Shown: one piece after another, positions 23,933-63,467 of the stretch
Numbering within the stretch: the first letter of the stretch is position 1
How the letters are laid out: each line of letters starts with the position of its first letter
Source: Alphaproteobacteria bacterium
GTDB taxonomy: Bacteria; Pseudomonadota; Alphaproteobacteria; Bin95
DNA length: 64,000 bases
Assembly (NCBI GenBank): GCA_963665325.3
Contig: OZ224045.1
Coordinates: 672,001-736,000, forward strand
Direction of reading: 5' to 3'
Notes under the pieces: model-generated
The model's database searches: none
What the model saw: only the letters and a program-made list of their open reading frames with translations
Told to the model about the DNA's origin: nothing
Translations under genes and position numbers: made by a program

Positions 23933-25381
23933 GTGACAGGCTGGCGTGACGCCCTTCCTTCCGACGGCCTGCTTGCGGTGGTCAAGCGGGACTGCCCGAC
24001 CTGCGTCCTCGTGGCGCCGGTACTGGCGGAATTGGCGGCGTCGGGAGCCGTGGCGGTCACGCAGGACGATCCTGCATTTCCGGAGGGCGTGGCCCCCCGG
24101 CATGACGGCGATCTCGAACTCTCCTACCGGCTAGACATCGAGACGGTGCCGACGCTGATCCGGTTCAGCGACGGCAGGGAAGCCGAGCGCGCGATCGGCT
24201 GGAACAAGGCCGAGTGGCAGGCGCTGACGGGCCGTGCCGACCTTGGCGAGGACCTGCCGGAGAACCAGCCCGGATGCGGATCGCTTTCGGTCGAGTTCGG
24301 GATGCCGGAGAGGCTGGCGGTGCGGTTCGGCGACATCCCGCTTGCCGCGCGGCAGATCGTCGTGGAGGACCATGACGACCCGATGGAGGCGGCCTTCGAC
24401 CGGGGCTGGACCGACGGCCTGCCGATCGTGCCGCCGACCGACCTGCGCGTTGCCCGGATGCTGGCCGGCACGACGCGGGCGGCCGACGAGGTCATCGGGG
24501 AAATCCCGCCCAATCTCGCGCCCTGCACCGTAGAGAAGGCGGCCATCAACGCCGTCATGGCCGGCTGCCGGCCCGAATATTTCCCGACTGTCCTGGCGGC
24601 GGTCGAAGCCGCGCTGATACCCGGCTTCTCCATGCACGGCCTGCTCTGCACGACCCATTTCGCCGGGCCGGTGATCGTCGTGAACGGCCCCGTTGCGCGG
24701 CGCATCGGCATGAACTGGAGCCTGAACGCGCTCGGCCAGGGCAACCGCGCCAACGCGACCATCGGCCGGGCCTTCCAGCTCATCGTCCGCAATGTCGGCG
24801 GCGGCCGGCCGGGCGAGATCGACCGTGCGATGCAGGGCAATCCCGGCAAATACACCTTCTGCTTCGCCGAGGACGAGACCGACCCGGACTGGACGCCGCT
24901 TTCCGTTTCGCGCGGCATCCGGCCGAGCGCGTCCGCCGTCACCCTCTTCCACGGCGAGGGCGTGAGCGGCTTCGTGGACCAGAAGAGCCGGACGGCGGAG
25001 GAGCTGACCACCTCGCTCGCGCAATATCTCTGGCATGTGAACCACCCGAAGCTCTGCGAGTTCGGCGGGGCGCTGCTGGTGCTCTCGCCGGAGCATTACC
25101 TCATCTACAAGGCCGAAGGCTGGGGCCGCAGCGAAATCCACGCGGCCCTCTGGACCGCCCTGAAACGGCCGGGAAGCGAAGTCGTGCGCGGCGCGGGCGG
25201 TCTTGCCGAGGGGATGGAACCCGGACGGGAGAACGAGGTCATCGACAAGTTCCGCGAGCCCACCTTCCTGATCGCCCGCGCGGGCGGGCCGGCTGGCCTG
25301 TTCTCGGCGGTCATCGGCGGGTGGACCGGAATGCGGATGACCGGCGAAGTCGATCCTGTAACGAAGGAGATCGGTACATGA
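23933..25381 (+). CDS. Thioredoxin-like domain (CPTC) fused to an uncharacterised GWTDGLP domain; UGSC partner
   Basis: KRDCPTC, ETVPTLI (cis-Pro loop), PGCGS, then GWTDGLPIVPPT, NAVMAGCRPEY, NATIGRA; stop overlaps the next ATG. Confidence 0.8.
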   Translation: MTGWRDALPSDGLLAVVKRDCPTCVLVAPVLAELAASGAVAVTQDDPAFPEGVAPRHDGDLELSYRLDIETVPTLIRFSDGREAERAIGWNKAEWQALTGRADLGEDLPENQPGCGSLSVEFGMPERLAVRFGDIPLAARQIVVEDHDDPMEAAFDRGWTDGLPIVPPTDLRVARMLAGTTRAADEVIGEIPPNLAPCTVEKAAINAVMAGCRPEYFPTVLAAVEAALIPGFSMHGLLCTTHFAGPVIVVNGPVARRIGMNWSLNALGQGNRANATIGRAFQLIVRNVGGGRPGEIDRAMQGNPGKYTFCFAEDETDPDWTPLSVSRGIRPSASAVTLFHGEGVSGFVDQKSRTAEELTTSLAQYLWHVNHPKLCEFGGALLVLSPEHYLIYKAEGWGRSEIHAALWTALKRPGSEVVRGAGGLAEGMEPGRENEVIDKFREPTFLIARAGGPAGLFSAVIGGWTGMRMTGEVDPVTKEIGT

Positions 25382-25902
25382 CGGAACCCTATGCGATGAG
25401 AGACCCGACGGCGGAGACGGAGCCGGCGATGCGCCAGCCCGTCGTTCCGCCGACGAGTCTCGACGGGCTCACCATCGGCCTGCTTTCCATCGGCAAGGAG
25501 CGCTCGGTGGAATTTCTCGACTCCGTCGAGGATCAGCTGACAGCGCAGGGCCTGAACGTGCTGCGCTTCGCGAAGCCGACGCACACCAAGCCCGCGCCCC
25601 GCGGCGTCATCCAGGACCTCGTGGAGCGCTGCGACATCGTTGTCGAAGGGCTTGCGGACTGAGGCTCGTGCACGTCGTGCAGTTTGCATGACATGAGCGA
25701 GCTCGACCGCCTGGGAATGCCCGGCTGCGCGATAGCGACCGTCGAGTTTCGGGATGCCGCAGCCGCGCAGGCTGACGCCATGGGCGTGCGTCCGGCCGTG
25801 GTGTTCGTGGACCACCCGATCCAGAACCGGACGCCCGACGAGCTGGCGGACATCGCCGAGCGCGCCATTGCGCCCATTCTGGCCGCAATCCGGAGCGGGT
25901 AG
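25378..25902 (+). CDS. UGSC-family selenoprotein, 174 aa, Sec95 (TGA 25660-25662 recoded)
   Basis: ORFs 25321-25662 and 25684-25902 are in the same frame, joined as LAD-TGA-GSCTSCSLHD; SECIS-like hairpin follows. Confidence 0.88.
25664..25698 (+). promoter_or_regulatory. Putative bacterial SECIS element
   Basis: GCTCGT/ATGAGC lower stem, GTCGTGCA/TGCATGAC upper stem, GTT apical loop 19 nt after UGA. Confidence 0.7.
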
Positions 25903-26109
25903 CAGCGCGGCAACAGCCGGGGCTACCGGGCGATGAAGCTGCGATGCATCCGGAGTCCCTCCGAACGGCGCATTTCGGTGTAGAACGCAGCCCCCGACGC
26001 CTGGGTTTCGACGGTCATGCGTTCCGGCATGTTTCGGCTTGAGGCCTGGGCGCTCCCTACGCCGTCGATTCCCGTCGCCGCTGCCCGCGATTCAGGCTGA
26101 CATGCCTCT

Positions 26110-29100
26110 CTACCAACGAAGAGACAACGTAACGGCGGCCCCGTATCCGGTATCGCCCCGTTCGTATTCGGAGCGCGTAGCGGAGATCGAGAACCCGAGA
26201 TCGCCATGCCCCGAGGGAGCCTTCCGGCGGGTGCGCCAGCCGAGCGTGTAGTCCCGCCTGGACCCGGACAGGCCGATCCCGACATAGGGCACGCCGGTCA
26301 GTCGTCCGCCCAGCGCCGGCAGCCCGTACCCCGCCTCAGCCGTTATTCGACCGCTCGAGTCGGGTGCGTTGCGCCGGGAAAGCTCCGTGACACTGGTAGC
26401 GGCGAACAGCGAGTCGGTTCCCCGGTTCGCCGCGGCGCCTGCCGACGAGGTCAACGACAGCGCGAGTCCACGCTCCGAAGACGGCGCCGGATCGAAGCGC
26501 ACGGACCCTGACATGCCCCAGTCCCGGAACCCGCGCGCTTCGTGCGAAACAAGGCGACGGGCATTCAGTTCTGCCGAAATTCCGCGCGCCGTGTCGGTCC
26601 AGCCGATGCCGCCGCCGACCTCCAGGCCGAACCCAGTCTCTGCATCCCCTCCGTCGTGGCGAACCCCGATGGAGAGCTTCGGGACAAGAGACCGCCCTTC
26701 GCCGTCCGAGAAGGGCCGTTCGCCCTCCAGCGCCAGCCGCATCCGCGTAACCTCTCCCTCGCTCGCCGCCAGGTTTCCGTTCGCAACCGAGCGAACTGCC
26801 TTCGAAGACGTGCGAACCCAGAAGGCGTCGGACTTGAGCGAAAGCGCGAACCCGTCGGTATCGGGCGCTGCCACCAGGGTCTTGACCGCGCCGAGCGCCC
26901 CGAGCGTCAGGTTGATATCCGTGCGTATGGGCGCACCGGCTTCTTCCGTGAGCGTGAAGTAGCCGGCACCGGCGCCGGCGAGGCCCCACAGAGATGCCGT
27001 ATCGTCCACACGCAAGCGGGCATAAGGGTAGATGCCCATCATCAGGCTGCGGACCTTGCCGCGCGCTTGAGGAGACGCCCGGGGACCGGTGTAGGCGAAC
27101 GTGCCTCGGCCCTGGCTGTGCGCGATCGCCGCGCCCAGGGTCATCCGCCCCCAGTCGCTGTCCGCCGCGATGAGGCCCGTTGTCACGTCGCCGTCCATGC
27201 GGACATCTTCGACCTGAGCGTCGAAGCGATCTGCGGCGCCGCGTCCCCAGAGCGAGAACACCGGGCCGTCCCCGGGCTCGGAAGAAGAAAGGTGAAACGA
27301 GGTACCTGGCGGAAGACCGGAACTTCTATTGTGCCGCGCTCTCTGTTCGTCGCTTGGCAGCTGAAGGCGCTCGGCGGCCGAGATGTAAGTCGTTTCCAGC
27401 CTGACGTCTGCCGTTGCGTCCAACATGGACACGCCGCCGACCGTCGCGTGGCGCCGCGGTTCCTCTTCCAGGCGCGTGCCTACCGCTTCGACGATCTGCT
27501 GCGCGATCGTCCGCCCGAACCTGACGAGCCATGCCCCCGGGAGCGCATCGCGGTCGTTCGAGATAACTCCTGTCGCTGCCGCTCTCCCGATACGGGCGTT
27601 CTGCGCGTCCGACAACAGAAACGCGAAGGTCTCTTCACCCTCGTCCTTGGCGTCCCTCAGCAAGGGCACGGACACGGTCTTCTCGACCTCGCCAGCGGCG
27701 AAGACGAGCGTTCCCTCGGTCCGTTCATAGTCCTCGCCCGCCTTGGCCGACCGGTCCGCCGTCGTGTAGTTGACCGAAACGGTGCGGGTGGAGCTGCGGC
27801 TCAGCAGGACATTGAAGTCGACGGCCGGGTCGCTGCGTTCTTCCGCCCGCCCGTCCTCGACGGACAGTATGGGCAGTTTCAGCACCGTCGTCGTCGCTTC
27901 GCTCAGGGCGCCGGGGCCGACCCTGTTGACCGCCCGCACCTGGAAGGTGTGTTCCTGTCCGTCGGCGAGCCCGCCCACCGTCCTGGTCAAGTCCGCCCCG
28001 GCGGAGTCCCAAAGCGTCTCGTCAGGCACGGTGTCGCCTTCAGCATAGCGATATCGATATTCAACGATCGGTGCTCCGCCGTCGCTTTCCGGCGGTTCCC
28101 AGCTTATCGTTACCTCGCCATCTCCAGGCACCGCAGACAGATCCTTGGGCGCGCCCGGAACTGTTACCGGCGTCGTGGTCGTCGAAGCCGGTTCGCTCGC
28201 ACCGACGTCGTTCACCGCACGCACCTCGAAGGCGTATTCCGCACCGTTCGTCAGGCCGCCGACCGTGATCGTCAGAACCAAATCGACAGAAGTCCAGCCG
28301 GTCGTATCCGGAACCGAAGCGCCTTCGGCGTATCGGTATTCGTAGCGCGTGATCGCAGAGCCGCCGTCATCTGCTGGCGCTTCCCATGCCAGCACGACCT
28401 CGCCGTCGCCCGGCGTCGCCGCAAGGTTCCGCGGCAGGCCCGGCGCAGCAACTGGCGTCGTGGTCGCCGAAGCCGGTTCGCTCGCGCCGACGTCGTTCAC
28501 CGCACGCACCTCAAAGACGTATTTCGTGCCATTAGTCAGGCTCCCGACCGTGACTGTCAGCGCCGTCCCGGCGGAGGTCCAGCCCGTCACATCCGGAACC
28601 GACGAACCGGCCGCGTGGCGGTACTCATACTCCGTGACCGCAGAGCCGCCATCGCCCGCCGGCGCCGTCCAGGCGAGCACGACCTCGCCGTCGCCCGGCG
28701 TCACCACAAGAGTCTGCGGCGCATCCGGCACTGTTGCCGCCAGCATAGCCGTAGCCGCAACCGCAGCGCCCAGCCCCACATCGTTTACTGCGCGAACCTC
28801 GAAAACGTATTCCGCGCCATTGTCGAGACCGTCCACCGTGACTGTCAGCGCTGTCCCGGCGGAGGTCCAGCCCGTCACGTCCGGAACCGACGAACCGGCC
28901 GCATGGCGGTACTCATACTCCGTGACCGCTGAGCCGCCATTGCTTGCCGGCGCCGTCCATGCGAGTACGACCTCGCCGTCGCCCGGCGTCGCCACAAGGC
29001 TCTGCGGCGCATCCGGTACCGTTGCCGCCAGCATGGCCGTAGCCGCAACCGCAGCGCCCGACCCCACATCGTTTATTGCGCGAACCTCGAAAGCGTATTC

Positions 29101-30613
29101 CGCGCCATTGTCGAGACCGTCCACCGTGACTGTCAGCGCCGTCCCGGCAGACGTCCAGACGGTCGTATCCGGAACCGACGAACCGGCCGCATGGCGGTAC
29201 TCATACTCCGTGACCGCAGAGCCGCCATCGCCCGCCGGCGCCGCCCATCCGAGCACGACCTCGCCGTCGCCCGGCGTCGCCACAAGGCTCTGCGGCGCAT
29301 CCGGAACTGTTGCCGCCAGCATAGCCGTAGCCGCAACCGCAGCGCCCGACCCCGCATCGTTGACTGCGCGAACCTCGAAAGCGTATTCCGCGCCATTGTC
29401 GAGACCGTCCACCGTGACTGTCAGCGCCGTCCCGGCAGACGTCCAGACGGTCGTATCCGGAACCGACGAACCGGCCGCATGACGGTATTCATACTTCGTG
29501 ACCGCTGAGCTGCCGTTGCTTGCCGGCGCCGCCCATCCGAGCACGACCTCGCCGTCGCCCGGCGTCGCCACAAGGCTCTGCGGCGCATCCGGCACTGTTG
29601 CCGCCAGCATAGCCGTAGCCGCAACCGCAGCGCCCGACCCCGCATCGTTGACTGCGCGAACCTCGAAAGCGTATTCCGCGCCATTGTCGAGACCGTCCAC
29701 CGTGACTGTCAGCGCTGTCCCGGCAGACGTCCAGACGGCCGTATCCGGAACCGACGAACCGGCCGCATGGCGGTACTCATACTCAGTGACCGCTGAGCCG
29801 CCATTGCTTGCCGGCGCCGTCCATGCGAGCACGACCTCGCCATCGCCTGGCGTCACCACAAGAGTCTGCGGCGCATCCGGCACTGTTGCCGCCAGCATGG
29901 CCGTAGCCGCAACCACAGCGCCCGGCCCCGCATCGTTGACTGCGCGAACCTCGAAAGCGTATTCCGCGCCATTGTCGAGACCGTCCACCGTGACCGTCAG
30001 CGCTGTCCCGGCGGAGGTCCAGCCCGTCACGTCCGGAACCGACGAACCGGCCGCATGACGGTACTCATACTCCGTGACCGCTGAGCCGCCATCTTCCGCC
30101 GGCGCCGTCCATGCGAGCACGACCTCGCCATCGCCCGGCGTCGCCACAAGGCTCTGCGGCGCAAACGGTACCGTTGCCGCCGGCGACCCCATCCCGGTAA
30201 CCGCAGCGCCCGGCCCGACACCGTTCACTGCGCGAACCTCGAACGTGTAGGTCGTGCTGTTGGTCAGGCTGCCCACCGTGACCGCCCGTGCCTCACCAAC
30301 CGGTGTCCACACCGTCGCTTGCGGCACGGACGCGCCCGCGGCGTGTCGGTATTCGTAACCGGAGACAGGTTCGCCGCCATTGCTCACAGGCGCATCCCAT
30401 GTCAGCACCAGCTCGGCGTTGCCAGGCGTCACAGAAAGGTTGCGAGGCGCGTCCGGAACAGTCGCCGCGGCATCCGGCACAGCCGTCCCGACAGCCGCAG
30501 CGCCCGGTCCCACATCGTTAACCGCACGTACCTCGAACGCATAGGCCGTGCCGTTAGTCAGGCTGCCCACCGTGACCGTCAGCGCCGTTCCGGCGGAGGT
30601 CCAGCCCGTCACG
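26110..30613 (-). pseudogene. C-terminal part of a giant FN3-repeat autotransporter adhesin (about 10 FN3, Calx-beta, beta-barrel), separated from its 5' part by a transposon
   Basis: Repeated W.AP...GGS..YEYR...FEVRAVN units; Calx-beta motif; barrel with RHDGGDAETGFG and terminal W. Confidence 0.88.
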
Positions 30614-30765
30614 TCCGGTGAGCGGGCGCAGGCTTTCAGCGGCGATCAGGGGCTGATCGGCTCGGATTAATCGAGGTTTTGGATTGGGTGCCCCCCGGCG
30701 ATCTTGCAAGAAGGCCGCCGGAGGGCTTGTCTCGGTGACAGTGACATCAACCTGAGACGGCCCCA

Positions 30766-31380
30766 ATGTCGCACAAGCTGTTCCGGCACTCCAATCTCTC
30801 CAACGCCCGGGTTTGGGATTTTCTGAAGCAGGTCGACGCGGCCGAGGCGGAGGCGTGCCGGGCGGCGGGTTGCCCGCGCTGCGGCGGCGCGCTTCACAGC
30901 GCGAGCTACCCGCGCAAGCCGCACGGTCTGGCGGCGAATCTTCGGAACGACGTTCGGCGCTTCAGCCTGTGCTGTTCGGTGTGCCGACGCCGCGTGAAGC
31001 CGCCGTCGGTGCGTTTCTTCGGCAGGCGCTTTTACGTCGGGGCGCTGTTCCTTGTGGTGAGTGCGCTGGCTGTGGCCGGCGGCGCGCGGTTGCAGACGAT
31101 CGCGCGGCGGTGCGGGGTTCCGGCCTCGACGCTGAAGCGCTGGCGGCGCTGGTGGCTGGAAGCCTTCCCGCTGACCCGGGAGTGGCAGGCGAGACGGGGC
31201 GAGCTGGCGGCGCCGCCCGAAGAGGCGCCGCTGCGCCGGCTGCTGCGCATCATGCGGGGCCGTGGCTTCCGCTCGCGGCTGCTGCGGAGCCTGGTCTGGC
31301 TGATGCCGTGGACCGGCTTTTGCGCGCTCGGCGCAGGTCCGGCTTCGCCCGCAGAAAGCGTTTCTATGATGCACGGATAG
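30766..31380 (+). CDS. Transposon ORF1: Zn-ribbon plus HTH protein (DUF6431-like)
   Basis: CPRC...CCSVC, then HTH-like LQTIARRCGVPASTLKRW. Confidence 0.7.
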   Translation: MSHKLFRHSNLSNARVWDFLKQVDAAEAEACRAAGCPRCGGALHSASYPRKPHGLAANLRNDVRRFSLCCSVCRRRVKPPSVRFFGRRFYVGALFLVVSALAVAGGARLQTIARRCGVPASTLKRWRRWWLEAFPLTREWQARRGELAAPPEEAPLRRLLRIMRGRGFRSRLLRSLVWLMPWTGFCALGAGPASPAESVSMMHG

Positions 31381-31428
31381 GGCACCGCATCATCGGCACC
31401 TCCACGAAGCAGCGAGGGGGATGCCGGA

Positions 31429-32904: not shown

Positions 32905-33734
32905 ACCGGGAACTGCTCACCTTCTACGGGCTCAAGTGGAACCCCTTCGCCACCGACCTGCCGGTCGACAGTCTCATGGCGACGCCTGCCGTCGACAGCT
33001 TCTGCCTCAGGATCGAGCGCCACCTGGTGCGCCAGGGCGGCTTCGCCTTGATCGCCGGCGAGCCCGGCGCCGGAAAGAGTGTGGCGTTGCGCCTGCTCGC
33101 CGACCGTCTCGGCCGCTGCGAGGGGCTCAGCATCGCCGCCATCACCCATCCCTCCTCCCGGCTGTCCGACTTCTACCGCGAGATCGGCGAGATGTTCGGC
33201 GTCGACCTGATGTACAACAACCGCTGGGCCAGCTTCAAAAGCCTGCGCGAGCGCTGGCTCGCCCATGTCGACGATACCCGCATGCGCCCCGTCGTGCTCG
33301 TCGACGAGGCCCAGGAGCTGCTGCCCTCGGTGTTCTCCGAGATCCGCCTGCTGGCTTCGACCGACTTCGACTCGCGCGCCATCCTCTCGGTCGTCCTCGC
33401 CGGCGACACGCGCCTGCTCGACAAGCTCCGCCAGCCCGATCTGCAGCCCATCGCCTCGCGCATCCGCCAGCGCCTGGTCATGACCAAGGCCGAGGCCGGC
33501 GACCTCGCGGCCCTGCTCGACCATCTGATCGAGCAGGCCGGCAATCCCGGCCTCATGACCGCGGGCCTCAAGGACACCCTGGTCGCCCATGCCGACGGCA
33601 ACCCGCGGGCGCTCACCGTCATGGCCGACGCCCTGCTCGCCGCCGCCGCCGAGAAGGAGCGCGAGGTCCTCGACGAGAAGCTCTTCATCGAGACCCTGGG
33701 CGAACCCGCCAAGCCGAGGAGGGCGCGGCGGTGA
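32901..33734 (+). CDS. ExeA/TnsC/MuB-like AAA+ ATPase (transposition helper)
   Basis: FYGLKWNPF, Walker A GEPGAGKS, Walker B VLVDEAQ, LAG, GNPR; ATGA coupling to the transposase. Confidence 0.88.
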   Translation: MNRELLTFYGLKWNPFATDLPVDSLMATPAVDSFCLRIERHLVRQGGFALIAGEPGAGKSVALRLLADRLGRCEGLSIAAITHPSSRLSDFYREIGEMFGVDLMYNNRWASFKSLRERWLAHVDDTRMRPVVLVDEAQELLPSVFSEIRLLASTDFDSRAILSVVLAGDTRLLDKLRQPDLQPIASRIRQRLVMTKAEAGDLAALLDHLIEQAGNPGLMTAGLKDTLVAHADGNPRALTVMADALLAAAAEKEREVLDEKLFIETLGEPAKPRRARR

Positions 33735-34729: not shown

Positions 34730-34756
34730 GGAGAGAGGGTAACGGTAACGGGTAAC
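34695..34756. repeat. Iteron-like array: 2x GTTACC facing 3x GGTAAC around the palindrome CCCTAGGG
   Basis: CGTTACCG at 34695 and 34708; CCCTAGGG 34724-34731; GGTAAC at 34738, 34744, 34751. Confidence 0.8.
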
Positions 34757-35002
34757 ACCGCTCCCATTGTCACACTGCGTAAAGCGGCCGGCCCGTGGCC
34801 GGAAGCTTGCTTACGGCCATGGATGCACTCCGTCGGAGGGACGGCGGCGGGTCACCCGAAGGGCCGGAGCGCAGCGCAGGAGCCGCGAAGCGGCTTGACG
34901 CGCCGACGGCCGTCCGACACCCCCGCCGTCACGCCCGGCCCGACGCCTGAAAACCATCGAACAACGTGACCATCCCGCCATCAGATACCGAGAGCACACT
35001 CA

Positions 35003-53491: not shown

Positions 53492-53581
53492 CGTCCTTCT
53501 CCCCCAAAATCGTCGCCGGGGACCTTAGCGGCAAACCGCCTTCCCGGCTATCCTTGCCCATCCGAAACGGGGGACAGCGGC

Positions 53582-54313: not shown

Positions 54314-54325
54314 GACGGGTGCTCG

Positions 54326-56206: not shown

Positions 56207-56210
56207 GCGC

Positions 56211-57155
56211 CTATCCCGCGCCGGCTGACGGTACATACTCCACGGCAACATAAACGCCATAGACGGCGAGGAACAGCAGCCCCGCCGGACGCCCGAACCG
56301 GCCCCGGTACATCAGCCAGGAGACGAGCGCGATCGTCGCGGCCAGCATCACCCAGACGGCGAGATCGAGAAGGCGTCCGGGAATATCGAGCGGGTGGACG
56401 GTCGCCACCACGCCGCCGATGGCAAGCAGGTTGAAGATATTGGCGCCCAGCACATTGCCGACGGCGACCTCGGGATGACGCCGGTAGGCGGAGACGACCG
56501 CCGTGGCGAGCTCCGGCAGCGAGGTACCGACGGCCACGACGGTGACGCCAATCACCGCCTCCGACACGCCGATCGTGCGGGCGAGGCCGATAGCACCCTC
56601 GACCAGCAGGTTCGACCCGCCGATGACGCAGCCGAGGCCGATGGCGAGCGTGCCGAGCACCATCCAGAGCGGCTTGTCCGTCGCCGCCTCCTCGACTTCG
56701 GGCGCGCCGTGCCCTCTTCGGGCGCGCCGGTAGGAGATCGCGGTGAAAGCCGCAAGGCAGACCAGAAGCAGCGCACCGTCGAATACGCTAAGGCTTCCTG
56801 TCAGCGCGAGCGCCAGGAACATCAGCGTCACGCCGATGACCGCGCAGCCCTCGAAACGGACCTCGCGCGGCTCGACCGCCAGCGGATAGACGCAGGCCGC
56901 CGCGCCCAGGATCAGCAAAAGGTTGCAGATATTGCTGCCGACGATGTTGCCGATGGCGATTCCGGGCGCGCCCCGGAACGCCGCCTCGAGGCTGACGAAC
57001 AGCTCCGGCATGGTGGTGCAATAGGCGACCACGGTAAGCCCGACGATCAGCGGCGAGACGCCGAGACGCGCTGCAAGCTGCACCGCGCCGCGCACGAGAA
57101 ATTCCGCCCCGCCGAGGAGAAGCACGAAGCCGCCGAGCAGTTGCAGGTAGATCAT
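56211..57155 (-). CDS. Calcium/sodium antiporter (YrbG family)
   Basis: Two alpha repeats: TTMPEL...GNIVGSNI and GTSLPEL...GNVLGANI. Confidence 0.92.
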
Positions 57156-57577
57156 GAAGGTTCCAATCGCGGACTGCCGCTCATCGGTGTCGGTCCGGAA
57201 CCGGCGGCCGCGGCAAGGTCCCGGTCGAAGGTGACGATATCCCGCACGCCTCGCCTGCGGCAGCTCGCCAGATAGCATAGATCCCTGGCTTGGAGGTCCG
57301 GGTGCTCGTCGCGAAGGCGTCTGGCCAGCAGGACATCCGCTTCCTCCAAGGGCCAGACCTCCACGCCCGCGCGCGAGGCAAGGTCGAGAGCCAAGTCGAA
57401 GGCCGCGAGTCGGCCACGGGGCAGATAGGCATGGGCCAGTTCCTGGAGAACTTCAGCCGAGGTGCACAGCGCCGCGCCGTCCCGATGCGCCTCAATGAAG
57501 AACTGCCGCGCAGCAGGTTTCAGCGGGTGCGGGCGCCCGACCGCATACATGAAGACATTGGTATCGACGAAGATCAG
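57152..57577 (-). CDS. vapC: VapC-type PIN-domain toxin; probable CTG start
   Basis: Frame reads (L)IFVDTNVFMYAVG..., SAEVLQE, ARD, TFD; CTGA overlap with the antitoxin stop. Confidence 0.82.
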   Translation of the reverse strand: MIFVDTNVFMYAVGRPHPLKPAARQFFIEAHRDGAALCTSAEVLQELAHAYLPRGRLAAFDLALDLASRAGVEVWPLEEADVLLARRLRDEHPDLQARDLCYLASCRRRGVRDIVTFDRDLAAAAGSGPTPMSGSPRLEPS

Positions 57578-57849
57578 GTTCCGCTCTCTCCGCCGGCCCT
57601 GGAAGCGGCTATGACGTCCAGATGTTCATCCCAGTCGGGCTCGGTCTCCGGTCCATCACCGGAATCGCACGCGCGGAAGAATGCCTCCACCTCGTCCTGC
57701 GACGCGAATCGCCGGCTTCTACGGCTGTCCTCCAGCCGGGCGCGGGCTGCGGCTCTCAGCCACGCGCTGAAGGTCATGCCCTCCCGGCGCGCCTGGTCGG
57801 CGAACCGCTCCCGCTCGTCATCCGGGATGAGCAACTGGACCCTCGCCAC
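57574..57849 (-). CDS. Ribbon-helix-helix-type antitoxin
   Basis: RVQLLIPDDERERF...ARREGMTFSAWLR; AGGAG RBS; directly upstream of the PIN toxin. Confidence 0.75.
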   Translation of the reverse strand: MARVQLLIPDDERERFADQARREGMTFSAWLRAAARARLEDSRRSRRFASQDEVEAFFRACDSGDGPETEPDWDEHLDVIAASRAGGESGT

Positions 57850-57872
57850 GGCGCCCACTCCTGCCTCCGTGT

Positions 57873-57893
57873 ATGTGTATGCAATATACACAT
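57873..57893. promoter_or_regulatory. Putative TA autoregulatory operator
   Basis: Perfect inverted repeat ATGTGTAT-GCAAT-ATACACAT just upstream of the antitoxin. Confidence 0.6.
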
Positions 57894-58013
57894 CGTCACG
57901 CTTGCTTCAATGCGAAAGGGGCAGCCGGCCGGCGGCCAGCACGATTTCCCCTGCCGAACAGCTTCCCGACCGGCTATTTGTGACCGGCCCCGATAACAGG
58001 AAGGACACCGACG

Positions 58014-58949
58014 ATGAGCTTGCCGCTGGACGACCGGACGCGCTACGGCCTGATGACCCGCCTGCCGACGCCGGAGCTTGCCCGCAAGACGGTCGCACTC
58101 CTGGACCGGCTGGAATTCGACTCGATCTGGGTCGGCGACCATCTGGCCTTCACCTCGCCGATCCTCGATCCGTTCGTGCAACTGTCCTATGCGGCTGCCC
58201 TCTCGCCCCGCCTCACCGTCGGAACCGCGGTCTATCTGCTGCCCATGCGCCATCCTGCGGGTGTGGCGAAACAGGCCGCCTCGCTGGACCATCTGGCGGA
58301 AGGCCGCTTCATCTTCGGCATCGGAGTCGGCGGCGAGTTTCCGCCCGAATGGGAGCTTGCCGGCGTGCCGCACAGCGAGCGCGGCGCGCGCATGACCGAG
58401 TCCATCGAAGTGCTGCGGAAACTCTGGGCCGGCGAACCGGTCGCCCACGAGGGACAGTTCTTCCCCTTCTCCGAAATACATATGCAACCGGCATCCTTTC
58501 GGGCGGGCGGGCCGCCGATCTGGTGCGGCGGGCGCCAGCCGGCCGCGTTCCGCCGCGCGGGCCGGATGGCGGACGGCTACATGTCCTACGTCATCACGCC
58601 GGAGATGTTCTCCAATGCGCTCGACACCATCTCGGCGGCGGCGGAGGAGGCGGGCCGCGAGATCGAGGCCTTCGGCACCTCACACCTGCTGTTCTGCTGC
58701 ATCGACGAGACTTACGAGAAGGCGCTGGACCGGGCGGCGGAACTGCTCTCGAAGCGCTATGCGATGGACTTCCGCAGGCCGGCCCAGCGCTATGCGGCGC
58801 TCGGCACGCCCGCTGACATCGCAGAGAAGATCGGGGCCTTCCACGAGGCGGGCGTGCGCCATTTCAATCTCGACTTCATCGGCGACCAGCCCATGCGCAT
58901 CGAAGGCCTGCACCGCTTCGCCGAGGAAGTGCGCCCGCTCATCGCCTGA
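58014..58949 (+). CDS. LLM-class flavin/F420-dependent oxidoreductase
   Basis: FDSIWVGDH, LPMRHP..VAKQ.ASLD.L..GRFIFGIG.G, PPIWCGG. Confidence 0.88.
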   Translation: MSLPLDDRTRYGLMTRLPTPELARKTVALLDRLEFDSIWVGDHLAFTSPILDPFVQLSYAAALSPRLTVGTAVYLLPMRHPAGVAKQAASLDHLAEGRFIFGIGVGGEFPPEWELAGVPHSERGARMTESIEVLRKLWAGEPVAHEGQFFPFSEIHMQPASFRAGGPPIWCGGRQPAAFRRAGRMADGYMSYVITPEMFSNALDTISAAAEEAGREIEAFGTSHLLFCCIDETYEKALDRAAELLSKRYAMDFRRPAQRYAALGTPADIAEKIGAFHEAGVRHFNLDFIGDQPMRIEGLHRFAEEVRPLIA

Positions 58950-59763
58950 GCGCGGCGGCGGCCTCCCGCGTCGCACGCTGTCCGTCCGCAACAGCCTCGG
59001 CCAGCGAACCGGCGCGGCGAACGGCACCCGCCGTAAAGACGCCCTCCCCCTCCAGCGCGGTCACAGGCTCCAGGCCGATGAAGACGAACACGCCCGAGAC
59101 CTCCAGCCGCCGCCCGTCGGCGAGCGTCACACCATCGACGCCGCTCTCTCCGTCGATGGACGCCACCTCGCTGTTCCAATGGAAGCTGAACTTCGGGTCG
59201 GCCGCCGCCCGTGCGCCATAGCCCGGCCGCGCCGAAAGCCGGCTGCCCCTCACGACCATCGCAATCGAGCGCGCGTAGCCCGCAAGGTGCAGCGCCTCCT
59301 GCAACGCCGCATCGCCCCCGCCTACTACCGCCACATCGGCATCCCTGAAGAACCCGGCGTCGCAGAAGGCGCATTGCGACACCCCCCGCCCGGTCAGCGC
59401 TTCCTCGCCCGGCACGTCCAGCCGGCGGAGCCGGGCGCCGGTCGCCGCCACGACCGCCTTCACCCGGTAGCGTCCGCCGCCGGCCGTCTCGACCATCCGC
59501 CGCCGGCCCTGCGCGCGGACGGCCTCCACATGCTCATCGAGGAAACGCACACCGGCTTCCGCCAGCCGGTCCTTCCAGCCGAAAGCCAATTCCGCGCCGC
59601 CGACAGACGCAGGCCAGCCGTCGAGCGCACCCACATTGGCGACGAGCCCGCCATAGAGCCCGGACTCGAACAGCGCGACCGCGAGCCCCTGCGAAACCGC
59701 CTCGTCCGCCGCCGCGAGTCCCGCCACCCCGCCGCCGACCACCGCCAGATCGAGCGGCCTCAT
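58939..59763 (-). CDS. Compact thioredoxin-reductase-like flavoprotein, 274 aa
   Basis: VVGGGVAGL, ATGA, GRGVSQCAFCD, VVGGGDAALQEA, GVFVFIG; ATGA coupling to the upstream gene. Confidence 0.82.
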   Translation of the reverse strand: MRPLDLAVVGGGVAGLAAADEAVSQGLAVALFESGLYGGLVANVGALDGWPASVGGAELAFGWKDRLAEAGVRFLDEHVEAVRAQGRRRMVETAGGGRYRVKAVVAATGARLRRLDVPGEEALTGRGVSQCAFCDAGFFRDADVAVVGGGDAALQEALHLAGYARSIAMVVRGSRLSARPGYGARAAADPKFSFHWNSEVASIDGESGVDGVTLADGRRLEVSGVFVFIGLEPVTALEGEGVFTAGAVRRAGSLAEAVADGQRATREAAAALRR

Positions 59764-60905
59764 GCGCCGATTTCCCTGACGATGCAGCAGGGCGGGAAAC
59801 CCCAGGACGGGAACCAGGCGCATTGCGGGATCGGGATGTCGCCGCCCGCCACGATCAGCACGATGTCTTCCGGCCGCGCGACAGCGGGCACCGCATCCTG
59901 CCCCGCCGTCCACTCCGGCCAGCGCTCGACGCCGATGAGACGCGTGCGCAGCCAGAGCTTGTCAAAATCGGCGCGCGGCATCCGTCCCCGCCGCCAGAGC
60001 GCCTCCTTCACGTCCGCCTTCGACCAGCCCTGACTTGCCAGCTCCTGCGCGACAAAAGGCGCCATCACGACCGCCGCCTTGCCCTCCCAGGCCATGTTGA
60101 AGGACGAGGCGGCGGAGCCCATCACGCTCGCAAGATCGTCCAGCCCGCCGGTCACATTGATCGCCGTCTCCGCCCGCATCATCGCCAACACATTCTCGCC
60201 GCCCAGTTCCTCATGCAGCGGCTCCCAGGGGTTGGCCGCGGCGTTCTCGGCCAGCACCATGGTATAGCGCCCCGGCTGGCCGAGCCCGGCGAAGGATACG
60301 GCCTCCGGCCAGCCGCCGCCGATATTGTTCATCACGAACCTGACCGCGCGCCCGATGGCGGCATTGGCCTGCCAGCCCGGCCCCAGCATTCCGAAGCCGG
60401 CATTCACCTCCAGCCGTTCGACGACCGGCCCGCTCAGCAGGATGAGCGGCGCCACATTCTCATCCGTGGTCTGCACACCCCGCAGGTTGAAGGCGGGGTC
60501 GGCCAGCGCCTCCACGGCAGCCAGAACCACCGGGAAATGCTCCGGCGCGCAGCCCGCCATGACGGCATTGGCGGCCACGCGCTCGACCGTCGCCACGCCC
60601 TTCAGCGGATCGAGCTCGCCCAGGCTTTCGTTGCGCCCGCGCCCGCCGGCGCGCAGCATGGCGTCCACCCGGTCGAGCGTCGGCGGCAGGATGGGCAGGC
60701 CATCGGTCCAGCCGCGCCGGTAGTAAAGCGCGCTCGCGTCGCCGTCCCGCAACACCTCCACCCGCTGACGGGGGAAACGCCCGGCCTCCGTCAGCCGGGC
60801 GGTCATGCCCTTCTCGCGCGCCCTCTGGACGAGGGTGTCATCGATCCACGCCCCGTTCGCCCGCTGGCCCGCAGGTATCAGCAGCCAGAGCGCCTCTCCG
60901 CTCAT
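59760..60905 (-). CDS. Stand-alone GWTDGLP-domain protein (UGSC partner paralogue)
   Basis: GWTDGLPILPPT, ANAVMAGCAPE, NAAIGRA, GQPGRYT..AE shared with the 23933 and 61743 genes. Confidence 0.8.
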   Translation of the reverse strand: MSGEALWLLIPAGQRANGAWIDDTLVQRAREKGMTARLTEAGRFPRQRVEVLRDGDASALYYRRGWTDGLPILPPTLDRVDAMLRAGGRGRNESLGELDPLKGVATVERVAANAVMAGCAPEHFPVVLAAVEALADPAFNLRGVQTTDENVAPLILLSGPVVERLEVNAGFGMLGPGWQANAAIGRAVRFVMNNIGGGWPEAVSFAGLGQPGRYTMVLAENAAANPWEPLHEELGGENVLAMMRAETAINVTGGLDDLASVMGSAASSFNMAWEGKAAVVMAPFVAQELASQGWSKADVKEALWRRGRMPRADFDKLWLRTRLIGVERWPEWTAGQDAVPAVARPEDIVLIVAGGDIPIPQCAWFPSWGFPPCCIVREIGA

Positions 60906-60954
60906 GTCGTCATTCCTCTACGGGCTGCCTCCGCTTCTGCTTCCGGACCGAGGA

Positions 60955-61338
60955 TCAGAGAACTCGCGCGACATCTGTCCGCACAAAGTCCGTTCCAACG
61001 TGCAGCAAGGGGCAATCATGTGTCTTCGCGATCTCATAAGCGAAGCAGTCGCCGAAGTTCAGACTGGCCGGATGAACGCCTTTACCCCATTGCGCATAGC
61101 AGTCGGCGACACGCCGTGCCACAGCCGGAGAGACGCTGATAATCTCAAACTCGAGCCCATCGACAAGCTCTGCCATTTCCTCGCCGAGACCTCGCCTTTC
61201 GGCCACGATGAGCGCTTCAGCTACCGTTACGGCAGAAATCAGGAGACGGTCGTTCGCCGCGAGAGCATCCGTACAGGCGGCAGCCTCCGGCTCACCCTGC
61301 AGAATCGCCATGAGCGCGGACGTATCGACCGCGATCAA
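60955..61338 (-). CDS. vapC: VapC PIN-domain toxin
   Basis: MIAVDTSAL, LNFGDCFAY, GTDF..TD. Confidence 0.92.
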   Translation of the reverse strand: MIAVDTSALMAILQGEPEAAACTDALAANDRLLISAVTVAEALIVAERRGLGEEMAELVDGLEFEIISVSPAVARRVADCYAQWGKGVHPASLNFGDCFAYEIAKTHDCPLLHVGTDFVRTDVARVL

Positions 61339-61661
61339 TTCGGCAATCCGTCCTCGTCATAGAGGAAGTCCTGACTGCGGGCCGCATCGGAGTCTGTGGC
61401 CCGTTCGCCTGCTTCCCCGAGTTCGTAAAGCGTGCGTAGCGGTTCGCCGCGAACTTTGGAAAGTTCAGCCATCCGCTTGCGAGCGGCAGCCTGCACCGCA
61501 GCAATCACGGCGCGCCGTTTATCTGCATCGGGCCGTCGCCGCACGGGAGCCAGCCTGACGGTCGCCTGACCGTGACGAGTCAGCACAACCTCTTCGCCCG
61601 CCTCTGCGCGGCGTACGAGTTCGGTCAATTGCCCCTTCGCCTCGGTGACGGAAACCCGCAT
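61335..61661 (-). CDS. Phd/YefM-family antitoxin
   Basis: MRVSVTEAKGQLTELVRRAEAGEEVVLTRHG...SQDFLYDEDGLP. Confidence 0.9.
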   Translation of the reverse strand: MRVSVTEAKGQLTELVRRAEAGEEVVLTRHGQATVRLAPVRRRPDADKRRAVIAAVQAAARKRMAELSKVRGEPLRTLYELGEAGERATDSDAARSQDFLYDEDGLPN

Positions 61662-61695
61662 CGGCCTGCTTCCCAGAACGCATACCGGCTCAGCC

Positions 61696-61719
61696 GGATT
61701 ATGGTCCATACCATAGTCC
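61696..61719. promoter_or_regulatory. Putative TA operator palindrome
   Basis: GGATTATGGT-CCAT-ACCATAGTCC (1 mismatch) upstream of the phd gene. Confidence 0.6.
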
Positions 61720-61742
61720 GTTTCAGGGACAAGAGCAAATCT

Positions 61743-63467
61743 TCAGCCAGCAGCCGCCAGTCTGGCCTCCCAGTCCGCCGGCAGCTCGATCTCCCGGGTC
61801 ACGGGGAAGCCGAGAATGCCGTTGTGCGAGAACACATAGGCATTGGTGCGCAGCGGGTCGCCCGCCACCGCAATCCCGAAATCGTCGGGCTCGCATACGA
61901 TGGGCACCATCCGGTCCGGGTCGTCCGATTCGGCGAAGACCTCGGGCGCCTTGCCGAGCGCCACGAGCTCCGTCAGCGAGCGGTGGCCGGGCACCAGGTT
62001 GGTCCAGCCCGAGATATATTGCTCGAACTTCCGGGCCGGCATCCGCGCATGCTCGTACAACCAGTCGCGCATGTCGTCCTTGGAGAGCCCCGAACCCGCG
62101 ATGGTCTCGGCCAGGATCGGCGAGAGCACCAGCAGCGGGCGGTAGGTGCCGGTCGCCATGCCGACGGTGAACACCAGCTCCCAGCCGGACTGCTTGACCA
62201 GCGCATCCGCGAGATAGGGCAGCATCTCTTCCGCCCGGCGCCCGAAAACGGAAGTGATGACATCGCCGCCGGTATAGCGGGAGATTGTGACGGCGTTCGC
62301 CCCTTCCGGCAGGCCCATGTCGGCCGCCGTGTTCGGCCAGCCGATGCGCCTGAGCACATCCTCGTTCTCGGCAAGCGCCACCCGCCAGGTATTGCCGAAT
62401 GTACCCTTGTCCGTCTCATGCGGGATGAAGCCCGCGACATTGCGCAGGTAGAGCCGCCAGAAGCGCCCGATGGAGGTGTTGGCCTGGAAACCGTCCCTGA
62501 GCGCACCCTGCTCGCAGTTGAAATCGAGCGCCTTCGCGATCGGGCCGTTGACCGTAATCAGCGTTTCCGCCCCCGGCGTGTTGCCGGAATGCTCGACGCC
62601 GTATTCCGGGTCGGCCATCGCCTCGGCGAGCGCCACCAGCACCGGCATGTATTCCGGCCGGCAGCCGGCCATGACGCCGTTCGCCGCCACATTCCAGACT
62701 GTCGATGCCCGGTTGTCGGGCGGGACCTTGCCGAGCACCGTGTCGCCCGGCCGGTCCGAGAAGGCGAGGAACCGCTCGATCTTCTCCACCGAAGGCGGCA
62801 CCACCGGCAGCCCGTCGGACCAGCGGTTCTCGTAGAAGAGGCGGTTCACCTCCTCGAAGCTTCCCTCGAACACGATGTCGCGCGCCTCGGGTTCGACCGT
62901 CTCTACCGCCTCGACCGGCGGCTCGGTCAGGTTCGCGATGACAGCGTCCAGCGTCTCGCCCAGCACATTGGAGCGGAGCTCGTTATCGGTTTGCGTATCG
63001 ACATGGCCGGCCACCGGCGCCAGCGGCAGGTTTGGCATCCCCAGCCCCACAGCCGTGGTGCCCGCCTGGCCGACAAAGCCCTCGCAGACCAGCGATGAGG
63101 ACGGCACGCCCGCCGCTTCGGCCACTGCGCTCACCCGCAACACGGCGGGAGTGCAGGAGCCTCAGCAGCCCATCCCGGAGATGATGGCGTCGGCCTTGAG
63201 TTCCTTCAGCCGGTCCGGCAGCGAGGCGATGATCTCGCGCTCCTCGTCGCCGTGGGTCGAGCCGAAGACGTCATAGCCGATGAAATCGACGCCGGGATAG
63301 CGCTCGGACAGCCCGTCCGCCAGCATCGGGAAGATCTCGTCGCCCCGGAACAGGTAGTCCCAGAGAAAGGCGACGCGCTTGCCCTCCAGGTTATCGAGGC
63401 GCGGCGCCAGCGCCTGCAGCGCCTGCGCCTTCTCGCCCCGGGGCCAGACGACGGCATAGTCGGCCAT
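61743..63467 (-). CDS. UGSC selenoprotein domain fused to a GWTDGLP-type domain, 574 aa, Sec102 (TGA 63164-63162 recoded)
   Basis: ORFs 63162-63467 and 61743-63143 are in the same frame, joined as GMGC-TGA-GSCTPAVLR; SECIS-like hairpin follows; later RWSDGLPVVPPS, NGVMAGCRPEY. Confidence 0.88.
63120..63161 (-). promoter_or_regulatory. Putative bacterial SECIS element
   Basis: Minus strand GGC/GCC, CTGC/GCAG, CTC/GAG, GT bulge, CCGC/GCGG, loop CGTGTT 17 nt after UGA. Confidence 0.72.

Follow-up and report, generated by a model that had tools for sequence, protein, structure and literature searches.

Within the window, by which we mean the whole 64,000-nt stretch of DNA that was analysed, there are two loci in which a UGSC selenoprotein domain is encoded together with a domain that we call X. 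Locus A lies on the plus strand, and its first gene encodes a thioredoxin (Trx) domain fused to X (Trx-X; 23876-25381, 501 aa, from the open reading frame and its translation). The start is uncertain, lying either at TTG 23876 or at the in-frame GTG 23933, which is where the original prediction had placed it. The N-terminal domain has a thioredoxin fold with CPTC at residues 40-43 (cysteine codons 23993-23995 and 24002-24004), and X begins at approximately residue 165 (about 24369-25378), with its invariant AGC cysteine at 24566-24568 as located by the alignment of X sequences. The N-terminal 155 aa gave 45 matches in the PDB at E <= 1, all of them thioredoxins (best E = 4.9e-4), and the CPTC aligns onto their active-site CxxC. 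The score for TIGR01068 was 19.2 bits against a cut-off of 96.8, and Trx-X is thus below the thioredoxin equivalog level. A paralogue with 54% identity is found in the same genome at C3:669424-670797.

The stop codon of Trx-X (TGA 25379-25381) overlaps the start codon of the following gene (ATG 25378-25380) within an ATGA, with GGAG 8 nt 5' of the ATG. This second gene (25378-25902, plus strand) encodes a stand-alone UGSC selenoprotein, of 174 aa when TGA is read as selenocysteine (Sec, U). The Sec codon is TGA 25660-25662, giving U95 in the sequence GLAD-U-GSC-TSC. The protein matches the Pfam UGSC family PF24696 across the TGA, with E = 1.6e-35 and 123.2 bits (cut-off 25), and scores 120.8 bits with NF041046, slightly short of the cut-off of 125. 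Locus A is thus organized as had been proposed, with a Trx(CPTC)-X protein translationally coupled to a UGSC selenoprotein. The locus has a fused thioredoxin, and no thioredoxin reductase (TrxR).

The genes of locus B are all on the minus strand. The UGSC-X fusion (61743-63467) is 574 aa in length when TGA is read as U, and comprises a UGSC domain (about 62925-63452) with its Sec codon at 63162-63164 (U102, in GMGC-U-GSC-TPA), and an X domain (about 61746-62885) with the AGC cysteine at 62661-62663. It matches PF24696 with E = 3.8e-27 and 95.9 bits (cut-off 25), and scores 40.7 bits with NF041046 (cut-off 125). The AlphaFold2 model of the fusion is a single confident unit (pLDDT 92.0, pTM 0.91). 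A stand-alone X paralogue, X' (59760-60905, 381 aa, AGC cysteine 60549-60551), is modelled with similar statistics (pLDDT 90.2, pTM 0.91). Between the fusion and X' there lies a vapBC toxin-antitoxin cassette (60955-61709, minus strand), made up of an antitoxin (61335-61709) and the PIN-domain toxin VapC (60955-61338; PF01850, E = 1.6e-17); this pair was absent from the earlier description of the locus. In orthologous loci the fusion and X' are separated by about 20-100 nt. In a contig from an RNA library that is ~92% identical, position 60896 is joined to 61742, with 12 other letters replacing 845 nt.

The last gene of locus B encodes a TrxR-like flavoprotein (58939-59763, minus strand, 274 aa) with the redox motif CAFC. 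Its ATG overlaps the TGA of X' in an ATGA, indicating translational coupling. The protein matches Pyr_redox_2 with E = 1.6e-27, and also Pyr_redox_3 and Pyr_redox. Both cysteines of CAFC, C131 and C134, are invariant among 46 sequences, and a profile of the family aligns over its full length with solved thioredoxin reductases (best E = 3.8e-87). The score for TIGR01292 is 183.3 bits, short of the 343.45 of the TrxB equivalog, so that judged by sequence the flavoprotein is a divergent paralogue and not a true TrxB. In the present lineage it is ~30 residues shorter than in orthologues (273-274 aa vs 300-305 aa). Another TrxR homologue of the same genome lies at C4:167787-168509. The predicted gene content of UGSC-X fusion, X paralogue and TrxR-like flavoprotein is borne out by the reading frames and by the PF24696 and Pyr_redox_2 matches. 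Locus B has a TrxR-like enzyme and no thioredoxin, and the flavoprotein may therefore reduce UGSC or X directly.

Both UGSC frames of the window cross an in-frame TGA at U-G-S-C, and we have considered whether these are true stop codons, with the UGSC halves being separate small reading frames or pseudogenes and no selenoprotein being made. Gene callers do split or shorten UGSC genes, and the orthologues of the UGSC-X fusion are mostly annotated as proteins of 464-469 aa beginning 3' of the TGA. Yet the family profile runs on across the codon. All six UGSC matches in this genome have one in-frame TGA, as do 61 of 66 in a sample of 301 genomes of the class (exactly one each), and the remaining five have no stop within the match. 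Full-length cysteine forms account for 12 of the 120 fusion orthologues listed, and cysteine is found at the Sec column in 21 of 25 rows of full-length fusions (alignment A3), among them the fusion of the window, whose Sec was entered as C. Moreover, genes for tRNA-Sec, selA, selB and selD are all present in the genome with scores above cut-off, and there are hairpins after the UGA. In locus A a SECIS-like hairpin (25674-25692, plus strand) begins 14 nt past the UGA, with an 8-bp stem GUCGUGCA/UGCAUGAC and a GUU loop, and the 63-nt ViennaRNA fold from the UGA has z = -2.0. A short hairpin at the same offset is found in four of the six genomic UGSC genes (ViennaRNA, 63 nt from the UGA), two of which share an identical 8-bp stem; the UGSC gene at C3:670815 has a weaker hairpin after its UGA. 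In the fusion gene a candidate hairpin (63134-63149, minus strand; CCCGC/CGUGUU/GCGGG) was identified by eye 13 nt past the UGA, and is not the minimum-energy fold of its 63-nt stretch (z = -0.33). No Rfam family was matched by these hairpins. We regard true stops as scarcely credible; the UGSC genes of both loci are, from their sequences, real selenoprotein genes.

X occurs three times in the window, as had been noted, with a pairwise identity of 33-34%. The copies share the motifs W[T/S]DGLP..PP, N.VMAGC.PE and AN..IGR and an invariant E. The AGC cysteine is conserved across the family (61 of 62 sequences in one set and all 48 in another), and one Arg and one Glu are each present in all 62. 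A second cysteine, in YTxC, is found in 58 of 62 members and is missing from X' and from the window's fusion, so that thiol chemistry may differ between module types. No Pfam family recurs among the 62 members scanned. While 17 families were matched at E <= 5, none was matched in more than two members, and the first member had no match at all. Nor was there an NCBIfam match or a sequence relative in the PDB, and none of more than 4160 homologues of X' carries a Pfam domain or a name. By sequence comparison X is therefore an unannotated family, in agreement with the original prediction.

X is modelled as a two-domain alpha/beta protein of ~340 residues. The best Foldseek match is class I fumarate hydratase, with E = 4.3e-4 but a TM score of only 0.18-0.21 and an rmsd of 17 Å. 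By VIA the best Z is 5.4, confined to the C-terminal 120 residues, and the match to class I fumarate hydratase (Z = 5.2) spans just 79 residues, all of them in the C-terminal domain. Weak echoes (Z 3.4-5.2) comprise this enzyme, PrpD/IDS epimerase and maleate isomerase. These values are too low to carry meaning, and the modelled X is without a clear fold match. Since there is no informative fold relative, the idea that X binds substrate is drawn solely from its size and conservation.

UGSC is modelled as a Rossmann-like parallel alpha/beta domain and not as a thioredoxin fold, the fold match being generic only. Neither UGSC protein of the window matches PF07355 (GRDB) directly at E <= 0.01. 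On comparing profiles with hhalign, 27 UGSC sequences aligned with 14 selenoproteins matching PF07355 over 98 columns, with a probability of 85.4 and E = 5.8e-6, and the Sec columns of the two coincided. As controls, reversal gave E = 0.5 and ten column shuffles gave E >= 0.075. The PF07355 set consists of alphaproteobacterial 'PrdB-like' proteins rather than the characterized clostridial enzymes, and the PF07355-family protein of the same genome has no sequence relative in the PDB. The suggested likeness of UGSC to Grd proteins thus has a counterpart in the profiles, in that UGSC appears to resemble, remotely, the Sec region of GrdB/PrdB-family proteins.

The genome contains six copies of UGSC and seven of X. 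Every UGSC is fused to X or adjoins it, and the seventh X is the X' of locus B, an association far beyond chance. In the class sample X was found in 32 genomes and UGSC in 33, and every genome with X also has UGSC. The match in the sole UGSC-only genome lies 335 nt from a contig end. An X on the same strand lies within 215 nt of 60 of the 66 UGSC matches, with X preceding UGSC in 35 cases and following it in 25. In a sample of 251 genomes of the phylum the two occur in the same four genomes. As far as gene content can tell, X and UGSC are near-obligately linked, and the linkage of the two that had been proposed is upheld across genomes.

Fusions were surveyed in 35 representatives of the X family. 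Of those 511-563 aa in length, 13 of 15 have a complete or almost complete UGSC domain at the N terminus. A further nine of the 35 begin within UGSC just past the Sec position, and two have at their end a UGSC that is truncated at Sec, leaving its N-terminal half. Two carry the catalytic domain of ferredoxin:thioredoxin reductase (FTR; PF02943). In nine no family was seen (four of 709-741 aa, four of 451-469 aa, and P0219 of 551 aa). The fusion partners of X are UGSC, in either order, thioredoxin and the FTR catalytic subunit.

The proposed linkage of X to thioredoxin and TrxR also stands. Among 50 loci that were fetched, 20 have X joined to a thioredoxin domain in one protein, and ten others, mostly two-X modules, have a TrxR-like homologue; in the remaining 20 neither was seen. 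TrxR-like genes lie within 300 nt in three of five loci of the type [UGSC-X][X'] and are present in four of five of the type [UGSC][X][X''], and orthologues of the flavoprotein share contigs with orthologues of X' and UGSC-X. By these comparisons two-X modules have a conserved TrxR-like neighbour. These data bear on whether the enzyme might be redox neutral (an isomerase, racemase, lyase or transferase), with Sec and the AGC cysteine acting as nucleophile or acid/base, and thioredoxin or TrxR merely keeping both reduced. The faint fold resemblances of X are to hydro-lyases and isomerases, and the 20 loci where no dedicated reductant gene was seen would fit. However, those fold matches are below a meaningful level, and X has been joined, by fusion or coupling, to thioredoxin, TrxR-like and FTR catalytic proteins on repeated and independent occasions. 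Three different electron-delivery modules on X argue for a stoichiometric supply of electrons, and we consider redox-neutral chemistry quite unlikely.

It had also been suggested that there may be paralogues for different substrates, and the multiple X/UGSC paralogues are found in different metabolic neighbourhoods. TRAP or TTT transporters adjoin five of seven loci with orthologues of the window's fusion, and other neighbours of the modules include Amidohydro_2, enoyl-CoA hydratase, CoA transferase, AMP-binding ligase and luciferase-like oxidoreductases. Taken as raw families, the neighbours are heterogeneous around simple [X][UGSC] modules. Such genes suggest, as the sole indication, that the substrates are imported carboxylic or CoA-activated acids. 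They also bear on a role as a general antioxidant or thiol-repair system (a peroxidase, sulfoxide or disulfide reductase, or protein repair enzyme), where an oxidant would oxidize Sec and Trx/TrxR would then regenerate it, in the manner of Prx/AhpF or Msr systems. U-x-x-C, a fused thioredoxin and an AhpF/TrxR-like partner do make up the parts list of Trx-dependent antioxidant enzymes, and reviews group UGSC among the redox proteins whose function is unknown (PMC13188914, PMC2398784). However, six to seven paralogous modules in one genome beside differing catabolic genes and solute transporters are better accounted for by substrate diversification than by housekeeping defence, and the large conserved X is unlike known peroxidase or Msr folds among the matches listed. 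An antioxidant role therefore seems improbable to us.

The reading that we prefer, and think probable, is that X/UGSC is a modular selenoenzyme fed by thioredoxin or TrxR, of which both loci are versions. Its conserved core consists of X, with an invariant cysteine in N-A-V-M-A-G-C and the invariant Arg and Glu, and of Rossmann-like UGSC, with Sec in U-x-x-C where a beta strand ends and a helix starts. In locus A the two are made separately, from translationally coupled genes, and in locus B they form a single polypeptide. We infer that the parts assemble physically and that electrons flow towards the selenium with net reduction, in Grd-like reductase or lyase chemistry on a substrate of the class suggested above. 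X would hold a small organic substrate, and the UGSC selenolate would either attack it or be oxidized by it. A selenenylsulfide could then form with the cysteine three residues on or with the AGC cysteine of X, and be re-reduced by a thiol relay that would differ with module type. In locus A the relay would be the X-fused thioredoxin domain, presumably supplied by the housekeeping TrxR and NADPH, and in locus B the dedicated TrxR-like flavoprotein acting on the UGSC-X/X' pair, probably as a heteromer. The two loci had been put forward as one system, but they are instead two separate module types, and because locus A lacks a TrxR and locus B a thioredoxin, the literal TrxR to Trx to Sec chain that had been envisaged is encoded in neither.

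The wiring of UGSC and X to thioredoxin-type donors points to a widespread selenium-dependent reductase. A bolder version, which we offer as tentative, is that X/UGSC constitutes a large and previously unrecognized class of such reductases in aerobic marine, soil and symbiont bacteria, where a catalytic X of new fold would bind an imported organic acid and the GrdB-like Sec domain would reductively break a C-N, C-S or C-O bond, with NADPH electrons arriving via a fused thioredoxin or a private TrxR. If that were true, the multiple paralogues within a genome would represent one enzyme family diversified by substrate, and the rank of UGSC among the most abundant environmental selenoproteins would be explained.

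These proteins may be compared with known systems. The UGSC parts of both loci match the models of the UGSC family (PF24696/NF041046), with U-G-S-C on an in-frame TGA. A fusion of UGSC with "Unknown_1" has been in print since 2008 (Zhang and Gladyshev, GOS selenoproteome, PMC2398784). The passages available of the literature searched give neither a function nor an obligate partner for the family, and they describe a 'likely Trx-like fold' where our model is Rossmann-like. As in low-Mr TrxR and AhpF, the flavoprotein of locus B has a CxxC redox pair and is a full-length homologue of solved TrxRs, and the N-terminal domain of locus A has the thioredoxin fold with CxxC; both differ from true TrxR and Trx in lying far below the equivalog cut-offs. 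A functional parallel to our reading is the substrate-specific selenoprotein B of glycine/sarcosine/betaine reductase (GrdB, with its proprotein GrdE) and of D-proline reductase (PrdB, with PrdA), for which the UxxCxxC motif of GrdB, the link to thioredoxin and the homology of PrdB and GrdB are described in PMC13188914. Unlike in that system, the partner here is X, which shows no recurrent match to any Pfam family (0 of 62) and hence none to the GrdE/PrdA pyruvoyl proprotein family, and X/UGSC is hosted by high-GC bacteria of aerobic type that have numerous paralogous modules. The two are alike in carrying Sec in U-x-x-C(-x-x-C) where a strand meets a helix in an alpha/beta domain. As in Grd and Prd, the selenoprotein of X/UGSC would have a larger partner on the substrate side and would draw its reducing power from the thioredoxin system.

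Within the window there are two loci that encode the selenoprotein UGSC together with an unannotated partner domain that we call X. In locus A, on the forward strand, an ORF of 501 amino acids (23876-25381) opens with a thioredoxin-like stretch containing the motif CPTC and continues into X over about 335 residues; the start originally placed at 23933 is an in-frame GTG within this ORF. The TGA stop of this Trx-X gene overlaps the ATG of the UGSC gene that follows, as ATGA at 25378-25381, with GGAG lying 8 nt upstream. The stand-alone UGSC protein (25378-25902, forward strand, 174 amino acids) has the motif GLAD-U-GSC-TSC when its TGA is read as selenocysteine (Sec). Locus B lies on the reverse strand, and its first gene encodes a UGSC-X fusion of 574 amino acids (63467-61743), again with TGA read as Sec, in which the UGSC domain (GMGC-U-GSC) is followed by X. 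A stand-alone X paralogue, X', has 381 amino acids (60905-59760, reverse strand), and its stop is overlapped by the ATG of a TrxR-like flavoprotein of 274 amino acids with a CAFC motif (59763-58939, reverse strand). The fusion and X' are separated by an antitoxin/VapC pair (61709-60955, reverse strand) that is absent from the original prediction. Both UGSC parts match Pfam PF24696, with E = 1.6e-35 for locus A and 3.8e-27 for the fusion, and both match NCBIfam NF041046. On alignment, identity among the three X copies is 33-34%, and the motifs by which X was first recognized are common to all of them.

UGSC has been listed since 2007-2008 among the most abundant selenoproteins of aquatic metagenomes, and is one of the major families in GOS, with 255 selenoprotein sequences and 21 Cys sequences (PMC2398784, 2008); a 'UGSC/Unknown_1' fusion, whose second part may be X, is listed there too. 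It has been described as a 'selenoprotein of unknown function' in a 2007 paper that reports a UGSC gene in Hyphomonas neptunium (PMC1976440), and its functions as ones that 'remain largely uncharacterized' (PMC9312934, 2022; PMC13188914, 2026). Our searches of the literature outside subscription journals yielded nothing on UGSC beyond catalogues and reviews, and in them we found no published obligate partner of UGSC and no published link to TrxR.

The complete genome to which the window belongs contains seven copies of X by tblastn. X lies behind UGSC in two fusions (C1:259964-261526 and locus B). Trx-X precedes UGSC in locus A and at C3:669424-671312, X precedes UGSC at C3:1239986-1241559, and at C1:963593-966102 the order is X, a vapBC-like pair and UGSC. 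X' of locus B is the seventh copy. Among 301 genomes of the class, X is present in 32 and UGSC in 33; all 32 genomes with X hold UGSC. In the sole genome with UGSC alone, the match lies 335 nt from a contig end. A same-strand X match was found within 215 nt of 60 of the 66 UGSC matches. The six exceptions comprise two fusions, whose own X fell outside the six candidates scored per genome and was seen by other searches, one pair interrupted by vapBC, two matches at contig ends and one other match. In a sample of 251 genomes from the phylum, the same four genomes carry X and UGSC, and the two are adjacent. At the level of genes, X and UGSC are one unit.

The unit recurs in three arrangements. 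One is [X or Trx-X][UGSC]; another, that of locus B, is [UGSC-X][X']; and the third is [UGSC][X][short X''], where X'' is a short X copy found in other genomes. The gene-level observation in the two loci of the window is confirmed, and is firmer than when first made. The linkage of UGSC, X, Trx and TrxR stands, resting on fusion, adjacency and co-occurrence; the proposal of a single system spread over both loci does not. We have dropped the reading of loci A and B as one pathway. They are two distinct module types, each of which recurs alone in other genomes.

The genome has six matches to PF24696, each with exactly one in-frame TGA. A tRNA-Sec was identified by Aragorn. The contig of the window carries selD and, some 9-12 kb beyond the end of the window, selA and selB; all three score above curated cut-offs. 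When the 63 nt after each UGA were folded, a short hairpin beginning about 14 nt downstream was found in four of the six UGSC genes. The stem is identical in two of these, and in a third it departs from them by one compensated pair. At C3:670815 the hairpin is weaker, and in the locus B fusion there is a candidate only, which differs from the minimum-energy fold of its 63 nt. An Rfam scan of the window returned two tRNAs only, with no match to a SECIS family. Judged from sequence, the UGA codons of the UGSC genes are Sec codons.

The selD match (C1:979117-980004, locus L016) lies within an open frame of 730 amino acids, and SelD of this genome is probably fused to another domain; NADH-dehydrogenase-SelD fusions have been described in GOS (PMC2398784). 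The genome also encodes selenoproteins of PF07355, the Pfam family GRDB of the Sec subunits GrdB and PrdB of glycine/betaine and D-proline reductases, at C1:281706-281924, C4:442400-442840 and C4:88247-88645 (loci L023, L024 and L025), where the in-frame TGA falls within (V-P-V or A-A-N)-U-P-x-C. With these and its six UGSC genes, the genome is selenoprotein-rich. In a locus from another genome of the class (L035, G025:C2:2977001-2987000), a UGSC-X fusion is followed by a gene of the AIR-synthase family (SelD-like fold), a TrxR-like gene and selA, placing the UGSC-X module inside a selenium-utilization gene cluster.

X is a large family that matches no named domain. More than 4160 homologues of X' were found at E ≤ 0.001 among 8000 candidates scored, and a comparison with 1.84 billion cluster representatives gave 4528 matches at E ≤ 0.001 and 954 at E ≤ 1e-30. 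Among the matches listed, none of 120 X' homologues has a Pfam domain and the only name given is 'hypothetical protein'. No Pfam match recurs at E ≤ 5 across 62 aligned members, and a profile of these finds nothing in the PDB at E ≤ 10, bearing out the original view of X as an unannotated domain. A search of the ESM Atlas returned clusters of the X family only, none informatively named. An AlphaFold2 model from the 62-member alignment has two domains (pLDDT 90.2, pTM 0.91). Its best Foldseek match is class I fumarate hydratase (E = 4.3e-4, TM 0.18-0.21, rmsd 17 Å) and its best VIA-align match covers 77 residues of the C-terminal domain (Z = 5.4). Both matches are weak and partial, and we therefore assign no fold to X.

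The cysteine in the X motif N-A-V-M-A-G-C (the AGC cysteine) is present in 61 of 62 stand-alone-type and all 48 fusion-type sequences, and one Arg and one Glu are kept in 62 of 62. A second cysteine, in Y-T-x-C, is found in 58 of the 62 and in 17 of the 48 fusion-type sequences; its place is taken by Val in X' and by Ala in the fusion of the window.

Fusions provide further connections. In a Pfam scan of 35 X-family representatives, 13 of the 15 proteins of 511-563 amino acids open with a complete or almost complete UGSC domain. Nine others begin inside the UGSC model just past the Sec position, as gene calls truncated at TGA, and two have the reverse order, ending in the first half of UGSC where they are cut at the Sec position. 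PF02943, the catalytic domain of ferredoxin:thioredoxin reductase, is found in two. Nine have no family match; four of these, of about 710-740 amino acids, align with X over two or three separate stretches. In the locus A protein, the N-terminal 155 residues have 45 PDB matches, all thioredoxins (best E = 4.9e-4), with CPTC lying on the active-site pair, and a Trx domain of this type is fused to X in 20 of 50 loci fetched from class genomes.

A homologue of the TrxR-like protein is present in ten other loci of the 50. It lies less than 300 nt away in three of five [UGSC-X][X'] loci; a fourth has a partial match at a distance of 4 kb. Among the [UGSC][X][X''] loci it is found in four of five. 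Its orthologues are on the same contigs as those of X' and the fusion. The family profile matches low-Mr thioredoxin reductases in the PDB over its full length (E = 3.8e-87), and the window protein scores well under the TrxB equivalog cut-off. By sequence comparison the family is a true relative of the low-Mr thioredoxin reductases. Within the lineage of the window the TrxR-like proteins have 273-274 amino acids (13 listed clusters, 12 at 81-91% identity and one at 63%), and more distant orthologues have 300-305; about 30 residues are absent from the former, shortly before the C-terminal motif G-x-F-x-A-G-A-V. Judging by the Trx and PF02943 fusions and the TrxR-like neighbors, each module tends to come with a reductant input of its own.

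The six modules of the genome adjoin different genes. Locus A adjoins an AMP-binding ligase, locus B and the C1:26x k module adjoin luciferase-like oxidoreductases, and enoyl-CoA hydratases lie beside three loci; further neighbors are SDRs, an amidohydrolase, an enolase-superfamily enzyme and hydantoinase B. In other genomes the modules have 263 ORFs within 3 kb, called by a simple ORF caller that sometimes picked antisense frames, and we scanned 119 (90 + 29) of them. Of 23 loci, 5 have TRAP transporter genes as neighbors and one more has TctA; one or the other is found at five of the seven loci with orthologues of the window's fusion. Amidohydro_2 occurs in three loci, and eight simple [X][UGSC] loci have heterogeneous neighbors. 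These observations hint at imported organic acids as substrates of UGSC/X, the transporter and CoA themes being leads from raw counts.

Four RNA-labelled runs, from libraries that may hold DNA, gave assembled contigs of relatives 92-99% identical to 58900-63500. Contigs 92-97% identical from three runs of three studies cover much of the fusion gene, which is not proof of transcription, and some extend more than 100 nt to either side of its Sec codon; only the covered stretches are informative here. In one contig of 1030 nt (about 92% identical), X' (up to 60896) runs straight into the end of the fusion (from 61742), and 845 nt of the window are replaced by 12 other letters. In a close relative, therefore, the fusion and X' are adjacent and the vapBC cassette is absent, which makes the insertion recent. 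From run X3, the contigs match the vapC/antitoxin stretch 60936-61458 alone (96-100% identity) within the 4.6 kb compared; this cassette, or one almost identical to it, is thus present in another sample without the genes that flank it here.

Other toxin-antitoxin pairs lie in or next to the UGSC/X modules. The vapBC-like pair between X and UGSC on C1 lies at about 964.1-964.9 k (L020 8139-8890, reverse strand), a higBA pair is found just upstream of locus A (23166-23780, reverse strand) and a PIN/antitoxin pair next to locus B (57152-57891, reverse strand). Directly downstream of locus A is an ORF of 1500 amino acids (26110-30612, reverse strand) with about ten near-identical repeats of about 95 residues (TPGDGEVVLAWTAPA..GGSAVTEYEYRHAAGSSVPD). 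In translation its C-terminal region resembles an autotransporter or outer-membrane domain.

The UGSC-X fusion was modeled from 48 sequences (pLDDT 92.0, pTM 0.91). The UGSC part (residues 28-187) is a parallel three-layer α/β domain that matches many Rossmann- or flavodoxin-like chains with Z = 9-11.4, and the Sec is placed between the strand 94-100 and the helix 105-118. The 'likely Trx-like fold' suggested in 2008 (PMC2398784) is at odds with this model. Searching UGSC against PDB sequences gave nothing usable, the best match being CobE at E = 0.12. In the 25 rows covering the Sec column of the fusion alignment there are 21 Cys (including the Sec of the window written as C), two Ser and two Ile.

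GrdB has a UxxCxxC motif, GrdA is reduced by Trx, and PrdB is homologous to GrdB (PMC13188914). We compared 27 UGSC sequences with 14 PF07355 selenoproteins from class genomes (motif V-P-V-U-P-x-C in the genome of the window) using hhalign, which aligned 98 columns with the Sec columns superposed (Prob 85.4, E = 5.8e-6). The reversed alignment gave E = 0.5 and ten column shuffles E ≥ 0.075. The window UGSC proteins have no direct match to PF07355, and a PDB search with a PF07355-family protein of the genome found no solved GrdB or PrdB. The profile comparison is evidence for remote homology between UGSC and GRDB, not for family membership, and it gives measurable sequence support to the Grd/Prd-like analogy originally drawn.

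Our assessment is that UGSC/X is probably a selenoenzyme driven by the thioredoxin system. We infer its reaction, its substrate, a physical complex and the geometry of Sec relative to the AGC cysteine. UGSC now has a defined partner, electron donors and module types, so that its function becomes a question that can be tested at the bench. The genome of the window is a good test case, being complete and holding six UGSC and seven X genes in both main architectures, with selAB close by. If the Grd/Prd-like reading is true, the selenium-dependent reductive chemistry known for anaerobic fermenters of amino acids would be common among aerobic heterotrophs too. Set beside GrdB and PrdB, the Sec domain of UGSC appears GrdB-like, and its putative catalytic partner X is instead unrelated and unannotated.
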